This document shows positions 2,024 through 8,212 of a DNA stretch of 64,000 bases, piece after piece (within the stretch, counting starts at the first letter, position 1; every line of letters begins with the position of its first letter). This DNA is from Escherichia phage EC.P2. The notes under the pieces were generated by a model that worked only from the letters and a program-made list of their open reading frames with translations, did not search any database and was not told the DNA's origin. The position numbers and the translations under genes are program-made. The DNA lies in the sequence record PQ631072.1. One strand, written 5' to 3'.

Positions 2024-2047
2024 TAATAACCCCCGTGAGGGGGTTTA
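2024..2047 (-). terminator. putative stem-loop terminator/attenuator after HslV-like gene
   Basis: CCCCC-GTGA-GGGGG hairpin at 2030-2043 between convergently spaced genes; weak T-run on minus strand. Confidence 0.35.
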
Positions 2048-2054
2048 TGTTAGA

Positions 2055-2708
2055 TTAATTATCAGAGGACACTTTATCAAGTTTTTCAGAGACTGTCAAT
2101 ACTTTTTCTTGTGATTCTTTCATTTCTGCTAAAATACTTTCAGCTTCATCACTATCAGGATCACCAGTCAACAGCATACTAATTAGTTGCTCCTTGCTGA
2201 AGTTCAGAATATCTTCCGCTGTTAGCTCCAGTTGTTCTTCGATCTCTTCAACAAAAGTTTCACCGCCTGAAAAAGCATCTCGTAGTTTTGCAACTTCCAT
2301 CGCTTCTTCTGGGGTTGCCCCAGCGTCTAAAGCTGCTAAAGCAAAATCTGCCCCACTACCAACAGCATAGTAATCTTCAGTTAAAGGATATGCTCGCGTT
2401 GGATTATTACCCTCGTGCATATAAATTTTACCGTCTGGGTGAACAACCAATGCCACAAACTCTTCATCTTCTTTATCAGGATCTGATTGGATCACCAAAC
2501 CTGGGATTGTCTCTTGTGCTGCCTGGCACTGTAAGTTTTGTTCAAACCAAGAAAAGAAAGTCAGGATAGAAGACAGACGTCCTGCACCACCAACAAGGTA
2601 ATCCCCAATTTTACGCACTTTCTTGAAATTTAAAGTGTCTACTCGATTACCTACTGTTACTTTACCGTCAGATAGAATTTTGTTATGTGTTGCAATAATT
2701 GTTGTCAT
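2055..2708 (-). CDS. HslV/ClpQ-like N-terminal-nucleophile threonine peptidase with acidic C-terminal extension
   Basis: MTTIIA... N-terminus (Thr right after Met), GKVTVGN...KKVRK and VGGAG and YAVGSGADFA segments align to E. coli HslV TTIV...GNTVMKGNVKKVRR...GFAGG...IAIGSGGPYA; about 40 aa longer than HslV with a D/E-rich tail. Confidence 0.6.
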   Translation of the reverse strand: MTTIIATHNKILSDGKVTVGNRVDTLNFKKVRKIGDYLVGGAGRLSSILTFFSWFEQNLQCQAAQETIPGLVIQSDPDKEDEEFVALVVHPDGKIYMHEGNNPTRAYPLTEDYYAVGSGADFALAALDAGATPEEAMEVAKLRDAFSGGETFVEEIEEQLELTAEDILNFSKEQLISMLLTGDPDSDEAESILAEMKESQEKVLTVSEKLDKVSSDN

Positions 2709-3199
2709 TGTACTTCCTCCTGTAGTGTTTTAAGGACTGCTTTACCACCGCTTACATACTTACGTAGGTAATCAATAGCTCTTAGTGTTTCTTTATCCAC
2801 AAGAATTTTATTGGTTCTTGTTAGTGGATGATTTAGTAAATCACTGCAATTTCTTACTAACATAGATTTCTTGTGAAAGATACTGCTAAGAAAAAGAAGT
2901 TTAGAATCTTCTTCATCAATCAGGAGTAATTCTGAATTAGATCCGGCTACATTTATTATACACTCAAACAAGCCTTCTTGACTATCAGATAATTCCTGGT
3001 AATATTTAGTTAGCCAATCCTCTCCTTTTAACCAACTAAAAAACATCTGAACTTTTTGTAAAGTTGTCATGTTCTCTAAACGAAGAGATATTTCTTTTTC
3101 AATCTTGTCAATATAAATCTGTCTAAACTCATTCGGCTTAACTAAGCCAGCTTGATAGCATTCATCAATACCATTGCGATCAATCTCAATTAGCGTCAT
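2705..3199 (-). CDS. hypothetical protein (164 aa)
   Basis: ORF translationally coupled to HslV-like gene (ATGA overlap at 2705-2708). Confidence 0.45.
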   Translation of the reverse strand: MTLIEIDRNGIDECYQAGLVKPNEFRQIYIDKIEKEISLRLENMTTLQKVQMFFSWLKGEDWLTKYYQELSDSQEGLFECIINVAGSNSELLLIDEEDSKLLFLSSIFHKKSMLVRNCSDLLNHPLTRTNKILVDKETLRAIDYLRKYVSGGKAVLKTLQEEVQ

Positions 3200-3235
3200 T
3201 TAACCTCCATAACAGGCATCCTTGCCTTGTAATTA

Positions 3236-3988
3236 TTAATATACTTCCGTGATAAACTGAGACAAACGGGAACGTTGGTTATCAGCAGTTGTCATTTCAA
3301 CATAACCAATAAAATCTACAATAGCTTCCCTTTCTCCTTCTTCGTTAATAGGAACAACACGATCTAACAAATCACCTAACCCATTAGCTCTTCGTTTAAT
3401 TGCATATGTTTGATTAACATCGCCCATAATGACAATACGTGTATTAAGACCTGCTCGCTCAAGGAGAAGTTTTACTGTGTTTGGTGACATAAGTTGAACT
3501 TCATCAATAAGAATAATGCTGTTATCCCACGTAGCACCTAGTGCATAGTTTGGAATATTAAGTTCAATTTTGCCACTTGCAATATCGTTTTCCAATTTAT
3601 TTGCAGTCATAAACTGTTGGAAAATTCGTTTAGTTGATTCGTAGTGTGCTGCTAGTTTATCAGTCTTATCTCCAGATAAGAAACCGATTTGGTCATCACC
3701 TACTTCTGTCGGGTTTTTAAGGAAAATCAACTTTCTGAAGTCACCAGCTTTAAGCATTTGTAATGCTTTCCATAGTGCTGTTGTCGTTTTTCCTGTTCCT
3801 GCTGGGGCATTAACAATGGTTAAATCATTCCAAACCATGCTTCTTACAATAGCTTCTTGATTCCCAACAGGGGTAAATTCATCAAGACGGTAATCATCAT
3901 TTCCTACTGCTTTAGCCGCATAACGACTGGCACGTTTGTCATCATTGGCTGCTGATTGACGACGAGCCTTTGCGGTTTTATTTCCCAT
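3236..3988 (-). CDS. phoH: PhoH-like ATPase
   Basis: 250 aa; Walker A VNAPAGTGKTTTAL and overall PhoH-family layout. Confidence 0.75.
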   Translation of the reverse strand: MGNKTAKARRQSAANDDKRASRYAAKAVGNDDYRLDEFTPVGNQEAIVRSMVWNDLTIVNAPAGTGKTTTALWKALQMLKAGDFRKLIFLKNPTEVGDDQIGFLSGDKTDKLAAHYESTKRIFQQFMTANKLENDIASGKIELNIPNYALGATWDNSIILIDEVQLMSPNTVKLLLERAGLNTRIVIMGDVNQTYAIKRRANGLGDLLDRVVPINEEGEREAIVDFIGYVEMTTADNQRSRLSQFITEVY

Positions 3989-3997
3989 GTTTGCACT

Positions 3998-4026
3998 CCT
4001 TATAAAAGGGGCTTTCGCCCCTTTGT
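3998..4026 (-). terminator. rho-independent terminator (palindrome AAAGGGGCTTTCGCCCCTTT)
   Basis: Perfect GC stem AGGGGC/GCCCCT at 4005-4024 flanked by T/A runs, between lysozyme stop and phoH start; the same 19-nt core recurs at 17092-17110. Confidence 0.55.
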
Positions 4027-4687: not shown

Positions 4688-4954
4688 TTACTCCGCAATC
4701 TGAGCCATGAATTCACGTAGTTCAGAAAAACCTCCTACGTGGGTTAGATGTTCACCATCTTCCACAAAAATTTGAGGGAAGGTACGTGGCAGAACACCTG
4801 TTTTCTCTAAAACCAGATTCTGAATCTGATCTAAAGAATAGTCTTCATCTAAGGTAAGGTATTTAAAATCCTGTTCACGCTGTTCTAGCAGAATTTTAGC
4901 GTTAGTGCAGAAAGGACAATTTGGTTTACCGTAGATAATAAAATTCATTTTCAC
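4688..4954 (-). CDS. glutaredoxin (likely RNR reductant)
   Basis: 88 aa, CPFC active-site motif near N-terminus (IYGKPNCPFC). Confidence 0.7.
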   Translation of the reverse strand: MKMNFIIYGKPNCPFCTNAKILLEQREQDFKYLTLDEDYSLDQIQNLVLEKTGVLPRTFPQIFVEDGEHLTHVGGFSELREFMAQIAE

Positions 4955-5781
4955 TCCTTGTTTAAAAGTATAGTTAAAGTTCTTACAATACCGCTATCAA
5001 CACTTCGCGGATTTAAAGTAGGATCTGTTTTTAAATAAGATGTTGCTGGTCTGACTGCTTTAGAATTATAGGTTGAAGCAGATACAGGATTAACTGTAAC
5101 AGATAAATCTATAACAAGAAATATCTTTCGTGCAAAATCATACCAAGAAATATAATCTGCACCTGCATAGTGTACAATTTTACTATTTACACCATCTTTT
5201 ACAAGTTTAAAAATTGTTTCTGCCAGATCAGGTGCATAAGTAGGACATGATAAATGATCACATACTACATTAAATTCTTTTTGACCACCGTTGTAGCGTT
5301 CCAACATAGTTTTCAAAAAGTTATGTCCAAACTCACTATAAACAGAAGCTGTTCTGATAATAAGTGCTGTAGGACAAACTGTTTGTACTAAAGTTTCACC
5401 TAATTGTTTACTGTAACCATAGGTGTTCAAGGGGTTTGTTTTACTATCTTCTGTGCCAGCGACATGCCCATCAAAAACATAGTCTGTTGAAATATGTACA
5501 AACTGTATCAGTAAATCATTACATGCTTTGGCAATGTTTGTTGCACCGTATGCATTAACATTTATACAGGTGTTAACATCTTCTTCAGCTTTATCTACTG
5601 CTGTGTAAGCCGCACAATTCACAACAACATCAGGCACGTGCTGTACAAGACTATTCATAACATCTTTAAAGTTGGTAATGTCTATATCACTTGCTTCAAT
5701 CAAAATAACATCTTCTGGCGCAACTTTTGCCAAAGACTGTCCTAATTGACCTTTTGAACCAAAGATTAAAAATTTTGTCAA
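4951..5781 (-). CDS. rmlD: dTDP-4-dehydrorhamnose reductase
   Basis: MTKFLIFGSKGQLGQSL...NCAAYTAVDKAEED...HISTDYVF...YGYSKQLGE parallels E. coli RfbD. Confidence 0.8.
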   Translation of the reverse strand: MTKFLIFGSKGQLGQSLAKVAPEDVILIEASDIDITNFKDVMNSLVQHVPDVVVNCAAYTAVDKAEEDVNTCINVNAYGATNIAKACNDLLIQFVHISTDYVFDGHVAGTEDSKTNPLNTYGYSKQLGETLVQTVCPTALIIRTASVYSEFGHNFLKTMLERYNGGQKEFNVVCDHLSCPTYAPDLAETIFKLVKDGVNSKIVHYAGADYISWYDFARKIFLVIDLSVTVNPVSASTYNSKAVRPATSYLKTDPTLNPRSVDSGIVRTLTILLNKE

Positions 5782-6332
5782 AATATGATCTCCTTTAGTG
5801 TTTTGGCTTGCTGATCTTTTTGTGACAAGATAGGTTTAAAATTAATATCATTAAAGATTAAATCAAAACCCCAATCTATATTGATATCTGGATCATTCCA
5901 CGCAAGACTACACTCTGAAGTCGGATCGTAATATTCTGTGCATTTATATTCAAAATCAGCAATATCGCTAATCACAACAAAACCATGAGCGAAACCAGGA
6001 GGAATCCAAAATTGTGTTTTATTCTTTTCAGATAAGAGAACACCTACCCATTCTCCAAATGTTGGACTACCAACCCTAATATCTACAGCAACATCATAAA
6101 CTTCACCACGAACACAACGTACTAACTTCCCTTGTGGGTTTTTCTTTTGAAAATGAAGCCCACGTAGAACTCCTCGAATAGAACGTGAATGGTTATCTTG
6201 GACAAAGTTTTGTTTACCTATGTATTGATCATATAAAGCCTGATTAAAACTTTCTAAGAAAAAACCACGTTCATCTCCGTAAACGTCAGGTTGAATGATC
6301 AACAAATCTTCGATTTTTGTTGCTTGAATCAT
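5778..6332 (-). CDS. rmlC: dTDP-4-dehydrorhamnose 3,5-epimerase
   Basis: 184 aa cupin; DERGFFLESFN...LRGLHFQ...FWIPPGFAHGF motifs typical of RmlC. Confidence 0.8.
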   Translation of the reverse strand: MIQATKIEDLLIIQPDVYGDERGFFLESFNQALYDQYIGKQNFVQDNHSRSIRGVLRGLHFQKKNPQGKLVRCVRGEVYDVAVDIRVGSPTFGEWVGVLLSEKNKTQFWIPPGFAHGFVVISDIADFEYKCTEYYDPTSECSLAWNDPDINIDWGFDLIFNDINFKPILSQKDQQAKTLKEIIF

Positions 6333-6344
6333 TTAACTCCCCCT

Positions 6345-7214
6345 TTATTTTAATTTAAGTAAATACTTACCGTAGTCTGTTTTACTTAAAACCTCTCCAG
6401 AACTTCTTACAGAGTCTAAAGTAATCCATTCATTTTTAAAAGCAATCTCTTCTAGGCATGCAACCTTCATCCCTTGTTGCTTTTCTATTGCATGAACAAA
6501 TTGAGATGCTTCCATAAGACTTTCATGTGTTCCTGTATCCAGCCAAGTGAAACCCCTTCCTAGTTTACAGACACGTAAAGTCTTTTCTTTCCAGTACATC
6601 TCATTTATATCTGTAATCTCTAACTCCCCTCTAGCAGAAGGTTTAACGCTCTTAGCTTTCTGTATAACAGAATTATCGTAAAAGTACAAGCCTGTGATTG
6701 CATAGTTGCTTTTTGGTGTTTTTGGTTTTTCTTCAATACTCACCACTGTACCTTCAGAATCAAATTCAACAACACCAAATCTTTCAGGATCATTTACGTG
6801 ATACCCAAAAATATTAGCTCCACCATTCTTTTCAATATGTTCTTTAGCAGAATCTAAAATGCTACCAAAACTCTGACCAAAGAATAAATTATCACCTAGC
6901 ACAAGTGCTACAGAATCTTCACCAATAAAGTTCTCACCAATAATAAAGGCTTCTGCTAAACCTTTTGGGCTGTTCTGTACTGCATACTGTAGGGAAATAC
7001 CAAAAGAAGAACCATCACCTAGAAGATTTACAAAATTAACTTGATCTTCTGGTGTTGTAATTATTAGTATTTCCCTAATTCCAGAAAGCATTAGGACAGA
7101 GAGTGGATAATAAATCATAGGCTTATCGTAAATTGGTAATAGTTGTTTACTAACCCCTTTAGTAACTGGGTAAAGTCTTGTTCCACTACCACCTGCTAAG
7201 ATAATACCTTTCAT
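6345..7214 (-). CDS. rmlA: glucose-1-phosphate thymidylyltransferase
   Basis: [39 protein letters not shown] nearly identical in pattern to E. coli RfbA N-terminus. Confidence 0.85.
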
Positions 7215-7222
7215 ACTCCTCC

Positions 7223-8212
7223 TTAAACTTTATTTTCCCACCACTCTTTGTTATCTACATACCAATCAATGGTTGAATAAAGTTTTTCTTCAAATGTGCC
7301 TTTAGCTTTCCACCCTAATTCCTTTTCAATCTTATAAGGATTCACTTCGTATCTTAAATCATGCCCAGGTCTATCTGTAACCATCTCAATGAGGCTACAA
7401 GCATCTGTTTCAGATGGATACACCGCATCCATATAATCACAAATCATATAGATTACATCAATATTAGTTCTAGGGTTTCTGCTTCCAATATTATATGTTT
7501 CTCCAGGTTTGCCTTTAGTTACTACTAGGTGTAATGCTTCTGCGTGATCGTCAACGTATAACCAATCTCTTACTTGAAGACCATTACCATAAACAGGGAT
7601 TGGTTTATGCATCAAGATATTTGTTATCGTTTTAGGTATTAGTTTTTCTGGATGATGATATGCTCCAAAATTATTTGAACAATTTGTTATAACTGTCGGA
7701 ACACCATAAGTACGATGCCACGCTCTTACCAAATGATCGCTTGCTGCCTTAGATGCAGCATATGGACTACTTGGCTTATAAGGATTCTGTTCTGTAAACG
7801 GATAATCCCCTTCTTCCAGATCACCATACACTTCATCTGTTGAAATATGATGGAACATTTTAAGATTTGATTTATCTCCCATTAAACGAACAGCTTCTAG
7901 AAGATTAAATGTCCCAACAATATTTGAATTTATAAAAACACTCGGTGATGCTATTGAATTATCTACGTGACTTTCTGCTGCAAGATGCATTATATAATCT
8001 GGATTAACATCTGCCACAATCTTAGCAGTTAACTGCGCATTTGTCAAGTCAACACGACAAAACTTTACATTAGGTGTTTCTGATAAATTTCTAGGGTCTG
8101 AAGCGTAACCCCATTTATCTATAACGTAAATATCATTCTTAGTATTTTTAGCCAGGAAACGAACTACTGCACTTCCAATAAAGCCTAAACCACCTGTTAC
8201 TAAGTATTTCAT
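7223..8212 (-). CDS. rmlB: dTDP-glucose 4,6-dehydratase
   Basis: [19 protein letters not shown]...[13 protein letters not shown]...[11 protein letters not shown] matches RfbB/RmlB SDR pattern. Confidence 0.85.

Follow-up and report, generated by a model that had tools for sequence, protein, structure and literature searches.

Proteasome homologues are common in large phages, and for none of them did we find a substrate, partner or phenotype on record. The groups PPH and RPC, with the reference sequences WP_042125023.1 and WP_140207863, were defined by Fuchs, Alva and Lupas (2021), who give the loss of helix H2 as a hallmark and described no AAA+ interactor or informative gene context for the new homologues (PMC8665760); the missing hslU beside a phage HslV-like gene has also been remarked in a Salmonella jumbo phage (PMC7823757). 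The gene that we analysed occupies positions 2055..2708 on the minus strand of a 64,000-nucleotide stretch of Escherichia phage EC.P2 (PQ631072.1), hereafter the window, and encodes 217 amino acids (aa) followed by a stop codon. The original prediction, made from the letters of this stretch, described its product as an HslV-like threonine peptidase with an acidic tail and without an HslU partner. Gene, annotation and family are already known, as is the puzzle of the missing unfoldase; what we add is a PPH/RPC-like placement, an acidic replacement of H2, a fixed motif in the tail and a natural deletion in phage VEcB, all of them refinements and not a new kind of system.

The interface between HslV and its unfoldase is well described. 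The C-terminal tails of HslU enter pockets between HslV subunits, which are lined by F54, F57 and Q114, with further contacts at A79/K80 (PMC6429459). The basic cluster R86/R89/K90 of HslV lies at the pore, in a region that is remodelled on HslU binding, and BPH has five consecutive Asp/Glu residues in place of this cluster, has no partner unfoldase and did not bring down HslU in pull-downs (PMC5777263).

Judged by its sequence, the product is a phage-encoded threonine peptidase of the proteasome/HslV type with an N-terminal nucleophile (Ntn) and a complete catalytic set, and is predicted to be catalytically competent. The PHROG 1040 profile ('peptidase HslV family') covers aa 1-212 with E = 1.5e-62, the Pfam Proteasome profile PF00227 reaches 24.4 bits, above its gathering score of 22.4, with only aa 11-63 aligned, and the best matches of a PDB sequence search were all HslV chains (E = 2.4e-7 to 1e-4). 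An AlphaFold2 model computed from the family alignment (mean predicted local distance difference test, pLDDT, 82; predicted template modelling score, pTM, 0.66) and its comparison with the PDB by Foldseek both predict the alpha-beta-beta-alpha Ntn fold. HslV came at the top of the Foldseek matches (E ~1e-9, template modelling score, TM, ~0.67-0.70), followed by 20S beta subunits from archaea and eukaryotes and by BPH, and the 50 best of the 658 matches at E <= 0.001 were all HslV, 20S beta or BPH chains. Placement in a non-peptidase Ntn family was considered as well, and only proteasome/HslV profile families were matched.

The active site was followed through an alignment of 29 homologues with 33-98% identity, to which the conservation figures given below for single residues refer; all features of the gene lie on the minus strand. 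Invariant positions are T2, T3, D14, K30 in FKKVRK, G41, G43 and G117-S118-G119. The codons for M1-T2-T3 stand at 2700..2708, and T2 would become the Thr1 nucleophile after loss of the initiator Met. D14 (2667-2669) and K30 (2619-2621), which bound the segment 2619..2669, are the equivalents of Asp17 and Lys33 and align to D17 and K33 of HslV. The GGAG loop (aa 40-43, 2580..2591), in which G40 and A42 are at least 90% conserved, aligns to HslV GFAG and corresponds to HslV G45/G48 and to the oxyanion region at proteasome Gly47, and the G117-S118-G119 loop (2352..2360), the equivalent of HslV Ser124 and proteasome Ser129, aligns to HslV IGSGG. Downstream, D144-A-F-S147-G-G (2262..2279) within RDAFSGG forms a motif of the 20S beta type (D166/S169/G170), with G149 invariant and D144, S147 and G148 at least 90% conserved; we take RDAFSGG to be the counterpart of the beta-subunit RDAYSGG and closer to 20S beta than to HslV. 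The Thr nucleophile, the Lys region KKVRK and the GSG loop, which the original prediction had named as retained, are all borne out, the nucleophile also after assignment of the start, and the MTT start is present in 203 of the 227 homologues collected.

The open reading frame (ORF) of the peptidase is a real gene. Its ATG is the first start codon past the upstream stop, shares an ATGA overlap with the stop codon of the upstream ORF164 and lies 7 nt downstream of a Shine-Dalgarno sequence AGGAGG (2716..2721, minus strand) read from the sequence; the product begins M-T-T. Strong purifying selection acts on the core: in comparisons with five orthologues that are 59-77% identical, its nonsynonymous divergence (dN) is 0.11-0.25 and omega ~0.05-0.12, figures for omega that are rough because the synonymous divergence (dS) is saturated, and dN rises up to 0.5 in the core of the two most distant pairs.

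The sequence does not make the peptidase an HslV orthologue. The NCBIfam HslV equivalog models NF003964 and TIGR03692 gave 34.5 and 32.2 bits and did not reach their cut-offs of 137 and 157.75, so that the HslV-like identity proposed originally is kept as membership of the proteasome/HslV-type Ntn peptidases and given up as orthology. A profile search of 1.84 billion cluster representatives returned 58 matches at E <= 1e-30, which are long forms of 180-350 aa, then a large set of 135-155-aa proteins at E ~1e-20, and in all 2,199 sequence clusters at E <= 1e-10; the predicted model matches 47 viral structure clusters. With a profile of 54 short homologues (~140-150 aa) the phage core scored 142 bits, end to end over aa 1-155, and E. 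coli HslV 52 bits, the latter for a sequence that agrees with the PDB alignments over residues 11-138. In the AlphaFold2 model, H1 (aa 45-65) is followed by aa 66-83 without a helix, a strand at 84-89, H3, H4 and the final strand; the peptidase is thus modelled without helix H2, with moderate confidence for this segment (pLDDT 69-79). Because the core is closer to the short phage proteins than HslV is, and because H2 is missing, the peptidase appears to fit the compact phage PPH/RPC-like group of Fuchs, Alva and Lupas (2021). A tblastn search of the phage collection with the short homologue P0173 reached jumbo phages of Caulobacter and Brevundimonas (up to four copies per genome, as in the Caulobacter phages) and further phages; the matching proteins are annotated 'nucleophile aminohydrolase' or 'peptidase HslV family'.

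In place of H2 and the basic pore motif of HslV, the peptidase has an acidic, proline-containing loop, ETIPGLVIQSDPDKEDEEF (aa 66-84, 2457..2513), with 37% D/E, in which D81 is invariant and E82 and F84 are at least 90% conserved. HMMER alignments with E. coli and H. influenzae HslV place this loop along HslV residues 71-91; the H2 segment is swapped for a loop of similar length and not deleted. They also set the HslV basic cluster R86-K90 opposite K-E-D-E-E of the phage protein (K78-E82), and A79 and K80 opposite Q73 and S74. In the pocket for the HslU tail, F57 of HslV is kept as phage F52, F54 has become L49, and K28 aligns with T25. In HslV, K28 forms a salt bridge with the C-terminus of HslU. 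As read from these alignments, the phage protein would combine a charge inversion like that of BPH with the loss of half of the HslU pocket, the H1 hydrophobics being partly kept.

Past the last core strand, the protein is extended by 62 aa (156-217) with 27% D/E. A D/E-rich C-terminal tail had been foreseen and exists, though it is longer than the 40-60 aa proposed and includes a conserved helix motif. Its proximal part (2163..2243) consists of an acidic linker (aa 156-162) and the helices TAEDILNF and SKEQLISMLLTG (aa 163-182), modelled as short helices at 164-169 and 172-181 with pLDDT 67-76. The second of them opens with an S/T-x-x-E capping box and follows the consensus [ST]K[ED][EQ][LI][LI]xx[LI], here SKEQLISMLL. 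This tail motif stands mostly 54-57 residues (in a few proteins up to 69) after the GSG loop, occurs in 45 of 71 long-form cluster representatives versus 3 of 79 short forms, and is kept in Vibrio and Aeromonas phage homologues at ~35% identity (KSKEEILAMLF, LSKKELINMMF); the shortest long forms (183-199 aa) stop just past it. The distal part (aa 183-217, 2058..2162) is acidic and hydrophilic and poorly conserved, with a long helix at 188-213 predicted at low confidence (pLDDT 50-69). Its dN of 0.57-2.6 compares with the 0.11-0.25 of the core for most pairs, and selection relaxes stepwise from the core through the motif region to the distal tail. Beyond the motif the relatives vary: they have 0 to ~200 further residues, and the distal tail may be replaced or be extended by unrelated domains, the whole extension reaching up to ~220 aa. 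When ten longer relatives were scanned, Pfam recognised no domain in the extensions at their C-termini. From this pattern, the tail is best described as a small conserved module with a fast-evolving appendage and not as plain acidic filler.

The tail motif was compared by eye with beta-clamp-binding, SAP/HeH and HbYX motifs, and its consensus fits none of them. The C-termini in the family of proteasome homologues face away from the presumed ring and might serve interactions (PMC8665760). In long-form relatives from metagenomes (P0061, P0063, P0065, P0069, P0071 and P0075-P0080), the conserved helix is followed by additional C-terminal domains of at least two kinds, one of them Trp-rich, ending in W+L(H/A)N(A/E) and in some copies bearing a CxxC...CxxC insert, the other ending in ...Y.AL.DIWKE; neither matches Pfam.

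A natural deletion bears on whether the gene is needed. The plaque-forming Justusliebigvirus VEcB (MT932211, L005 21495-22298) has a 1,122-bp in-frame deletion that corresponds to positions 2523..3644 of the window and is flanked by two copies of the 8-bp sequence GCAGCACA. It removes ORF164 and the peptidase residues 1-62, and with them Thr1, Asp14, Lys30 and the GGAG loop, and leaves a fusion ORF of 267 aa (vecB_055) that joins PhoH(1-~113) to peptidase(63-217); VEcB is in effect a natural triple mutant. The peptidase, ORF164 and an intact PhoH appear to be non-essential on the laboratory host of VEcB, unless the deletion is an assembly artefact.

The best explanation of these observations, and one that we hold to be moderately probable, is that the gene encodes a catalytically competent, compact phage member of the proteasome/HslV family that forms stand-alone rings and has an accessory role. 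Host methionine aminopeptidase would remove Met1 and so expose Thr1, as the specificity of this enzyme and the example of BPH suggest (PMC5777263); removal of Met1 occurs in HslV and was shown by mass spectrometry for BPH (PMC5777263). The protein would then self-assemble into rings like those of HslV and BPH, with the active sites facing inward, and would work without a dedicated AAA+ partner and independently of ATP, as has been proposed for BPH. Its substrates could be peptides, unfolded proteins or specific proteins, and it would act when the block of genes for nucleotide metabolism, PhoH and lysozyme is expressed. The processing of phage or host proteins, as put forward in the original prediction, is speculative. 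The conserved C-terminal helix would project from the outer face of the ring, where it could serve assembly, gating or the docking of a substrate or partner. The peptidase gene would be accessory and not essential.

Several points weigh against this explanation. Ring assembly, ATP independence and peptidase activity are steps that we infer, and in the full-text literature we found neither a functional study of any phage proteasome homologue nor biochemical or genetic data on this protein or close relatives. Model confidence is lowest (pLDDT 50-79) in the tail and in the loop that replaces H2, and the PPH/RPC placement was made by the published description and the short-homologue profile. HslV alone is nearly inactive and BPH had no activity in standard assays (PMC6429459, PMC5777263), and for this reason the phage protein may likewise lack an activator. 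Lastly, the deletion in VEcB could be an assembly error, and the dispensability that it suggests would hold only for the laboratory host of that isolate.

The gene belongs to a minus-strand run that comprises, in order of transcription, dTDP-rhamnose genes, glutaredoxin, a T4-type lysozyme, PhoH, ORF164, the peptidase, ORF142 and a DNA methyltransferase fragment. The PhoH-like P-loop ATPase (3236..3988, minus strand; Pfam PhoH 123 bits) was expected next to the peptidase and is indeed nearby, one gene upstream with ORF164 in between; it is a P-loop ATPase of the PhoH/SF1-like type and not an AAA+ unfoldase. The order lysozyme, PhoH, ORF164, peptidase is kept across Stephanstirmvirinae-like contigs, 25 of 60 loci have PhoH close to the peptidase gene, and PhoH lies a few genes off in Vibrio phages qdvp001 and 1.193.O and in Aeromonas phage 4L372D. 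This linkage is not independent evidence, because the carrier phages share a wider gene order. Clustering of the neighbours at the 60 loci gave only PhoH, RNR, lysozyme and ORF164 as recurring families, within related myoviruses of 130-150 kb. At 37 distant IMG/VR loci, inspected by eye from the sequence without a profile search, no neighbour family recurred; the neighbours looked like terminases, portals, primase-helicases, lysins, HNH and WhiB proteins, and PhoH was present at two loci, which we judged, without calculation, to be no more than chance. In L055 (IMGVR_UViG_3300006341_000101) and L027, two contigs otherwise unrelated, PhoH adjoins the proteasome-like gene or lies three genes from it.

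ORF164 (2705..3199, minus strand; PHROG 14834, unknown function) lies directly upstream, its stop overlapping the start of the peptidase, and takes this position in all 20 loci that carry it, namely the Stephanstirmvirinae-like contigs and the window, two of which have a peptidase only 41-50% identical. Its AlphaFold2 model is all-alpha (pLDDT 93, pTM 0.84) and found no fold match in the PDB at E <= 0.001; Pfam and PADLOC gave no match for it either. C14, C118 and the motif KETLRA are invariant. As a conserved partner ORF164 was rejected, since it has no similarity (E > 0.5) to the upstream neighbours of the peptidase homologues in Vibrio phage qdvp001 and Aeromonas phage 4L372D. By its distribution, ORF164 appears lineage-specific and uninformative on function, and it is possibly a co-expressed partner of the peptidase. 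PADLOC indicated no link of the locus to a defence system.

Promoter and terminator consensus scans of the peptidase region returned no more sites than shuffled sequence. Directly after the stop codon of the peptidase, a GC-rich hairpin AACCCCC-TCAC-GGGGGTT (2028..2045, minus strand) is followed by UUAUUAGGAGG, the Shine-Dalgarno sequence of the next gene; its fold of -13.7 kcal/mol is not significant (z = -1.2) and the consensus terminator scan did not call it; a role as a weak terminator or in RNA stabilisation is possible. Short GC-rich hairpins stand in the intergenic gaps of the minus-strand run at 4005-4024 (between lysozyme and phoH), 3214-3227 and 2028-2045, each just before the Shine-Dalgarno sequence of the next gene, and only the one at 4005-4024 is clearly stabler than shuffled sequence (-14 kcal/mol, z = -2.7). 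Elsewhere in the window, a full dTDP-L-rhamnose pathway occupies 4951-8212 on the minus strand (RmlA 6345-7214, RmlB-like 7223-8212, RmlC 5778-6332, RmlD 4951-5781), just upstream of the genes for glutaredoxin, lysozyme and PhoH, and a cluster of 16 tRNA genes, in which tRNA-Met(CAT) is present three times and tRNA-Leu and tRNA-Ser twice each, lies at 31704-34592 on the plus strand.

That no AAA+ unfoldase gene is adjacent, as stated originally, proved correct over a wider range: scans of ORFs with Pfam and PHROG found none within +/-6 kb of the peptidase, a tblastn search with the phage's own AAA protein gave no match anywhere in the 64-kb window, and the annotation of phage W22, 99% identical, lists no AAA+ gene across the span of the window and no AAA_2/HslU-like gene near the peptidase. 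Outside this span W22 has two paralogous classical AAA proteins (PF00004, 38.9 bits), which share 42% identity and bear an SRH-like RPSRV besides the Walker A and B motifs; one is encoded at W22 134118-135245 (L007 37119-38246) on the plus strand, the other within W22 117155-118315 (L007 20558-21313) on the minus strand. Their family occurs in 379 phage records, many from Herelleviridae and jumbo phages and some annotated 'FtsH-like protease', and tblastn with the peptidase of this clade found nothing in the Herelleviridae and jumbo phages that carry it. Lying outside the window and belonging to a family widespread in phage groups where tblastn detected no homologue of this peptidase, the paralogues were rejected as a specific partner and are kept as one of low probability. 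One of the two genes adjoins genes for CapR-domain/T5orf172 and NADAR-domain proteins, a block that looks like anti-defence genes.

The alternatives differ mainly in the partner that they give to the peptidase. The original prediction had raised the hijacking of host HslU, in which hexamers of the phage peptidase would dock HslU (ClpY) and either form a hybrid protease with new specificity or draw HslU away from HslV. HslVU is normally encoded by the host groups Escherichia, Klebsiella, Vibrio, Aeromonas and Shewanella, a point that we count in favour of this idea, as we do the facts that, among solved families, HslV matches best in both sequence and fold and that the H1 hydrophobics of the pocket for the HslU tail are partly kept (F57 as F52, F54 as L49; PMC6429459). 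Hijacking is nevertheless less likely, because H2 is not predicted and the basic pore cluster is replaced by KEDEE: H2 is the source of A79, K80 and the apical docking surface (PMC6429459), and the exchange of R86/R89/K90 is a switch as in BPH, which did not pull down HslU. The alignment of HslV K28 to T25 counts against hijacking as well. With an HslV equivalog score at a quarter of its cut-off and with phage proteins of ~140 aa, of which many come from alphaproteobacterial jumbo phages, as the closest relatives of the core, we regard the hijacking of HslU as unlikely. The phage's own distant AAA ATPases would give the peptidase an ATP-dependent motor of a different kind and make the pair a complete two-part protease, and both AAA paralogues of W22 as well as the apparent presence of the ATPase in 106 of 106 peptidase-carrying Escherichia phage records speak for it. 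Co-occurrence inside one subfamily says little on function, however; the ATPase family is found in 379 records against 166 for the peptidase and is not prominent among the Vibrio carriers, its genes lie tens of kilobases away in other gene blocks, one of them on the opposite strand, and its C-terminus (...ASVF) has neither an HbYX nor an HslU-like tail. A pairing of this sort seems very unlikely to us.

Other readings assign the protein a narrower task or none at all as an enzyme. A processing enzyme or transpeptidase of narrow specificity, similar to connectase, with the C-terminal helix or ORF164 as the element for recognition or regulation, would agree with the existence of non-degradative members of the proteasome-like family, such as the monomeric and highly specific connectase, and with the suggestion, noted for other homologues, that loss of H2 and C-terminal modules could preclude stacked rings (PMC8665760). 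The translational coupling of ORF164 through ATGA and its position in 20 of the 20 loci carrying it point the same way, and the varied extra C-terminal domains of the relatives could be specificity modules. The active site, however, is not covered by a connectase-type insertion, the S3/S4 region aligning to HslV without one, ORF164 has no detectable counterpart beside the Vibrio and Aeromonas homologues, and no candidate substrate was found; we regard the narrow enzyme as unlikely, to the same degree as the hijacking of HslU. We give a low probability to a role of the C-terminal module, that is, the acidic linker with the fixed motif helix, as a docking element that recruits a specific partner to the ring, so that one particular host protein, for instance a factor of defence or stress, is removed during infection. 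The module is absent from the ~140-aa relatives, and the partner may be a host AAA+ protein or chaperone, a phage AAA paralogue or the co-translated ORF164. If the protein were a non-catalytic decoy or structural protein that poisons HslV rings or sequesters a host factor through its acidic tail, its active site would be a relic; an acidic tail and pore loop and a gene that is apparently dispensable in VEcB are compatible with this. It is set against every catalytic residue being invariant or nearly so down to ~33% identity, strong purifying selection on the core and an MTT start kept in most sequences, and a decoy is in our opinion extremely improbable. A competent, compact peptidase in stand-alone rings remains our preferred explanation.

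Over its first 8 kb the window has 99% identity with Escherichia phages PD114 and W22 and 98.7-99% identity with ~50 other phi92-like phages of Justusliebigvirus (Stephanstirmvirinae), and on this similarity the window is assigned to Justusliebigvirus. By tblastn the peptidase was found in 166 phage records, whose named hosts are mainly Escherichia but also Klebsiella, Aeromonas, Vibrio, Shewanella and, for a few, Campylobacter as listed. Proteins 100% identical to it occur in phages PHB05, PD06, SD2, W22 and others under the GenBank labels 'HslV family peptidase', 'peptidase HslV family' and 'putative 20S proteasome'; these existing labels are based on homology, with no functional evidence behind them. 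Aeromonas phage 4L372D (L003) has two proteasome-like genes side by side (5432-5983 and 6001-6885), the first for a protein of 183 aa starting (L)TCIIA and the second for a long form of 294 aa, and given this pair, hetero-oligomeric rings are conceivable in some phages.

The phi92-like coliphages grow on E. coli K-12, and with VEcB a natural mutant without the active site exists. They are a convenient place to ask what role a stand-alone phage peptidase of the proteasome type has and whether its C-terminal helix docks; should the docking role of the tail be true, they would make the still unexplained radiation of phage proteasome homologues tractable in E. coli.

Among the known systems, the labels of PHROG 1040 and GenBank ('HslV family peptidase', 'putative 20S proteasome', 'nucleophile aminohydrolase') name this very gene. 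HslV (ClpQ) shares with it 29% identity for the E. coli protein, a TM score of ~0.67-0.70, an MTT N-terminus exposed by removal of Met, the equivalents of D17, K33 and GSG and the absence of a propeptide. The phage protein differs from HslV in the 20S-type RDAFSGG where HslV has GDICIYTN, in the lack of H2, in KEDEE for R86/R89/K90, in the 62 extra C-terminal residues and in an operon without hslU. BPH resembles it in descent from the HslV lineage, in having no partner unfoldase, in acidic residues that the alignment puts at the position of HslV's basic pore cluster and, as presumed for the phage protein, in a Thr1 exposed by removal of Met. The structural match to BPH is weaker, however (TM ~0.55 versus 0.67-0.70 to HslV); BPH keeps both helix pairs and an elongated pore loop, whereas the phage loop replaces H2, and BPH is a cellular protein of stress-related operons that forms tetradecamers and has no C-terminal extension. 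With PPH and RPC the phage peptidase shares Thr1/Asp17/Lys33, the absence of a propeptide and the missing H2, and its Ntn core, which the short-homologue profile covers end to end, appears to be compact as well. PPH is likewise carried by tailed phages, occurring also in prophage regions, and has no AAA+ partner or informative gene context, but it measures ~140 residues against 217 here, and H2 is replaced by a loop here and not deleted. In RPC, too, the extension at the C-terminus corresponds to no known domain, just as the 62 aa of the phage protein have no match in Pfam, but RPC is listed for proteobacterial genomes only and not for phages (PMC8665760).

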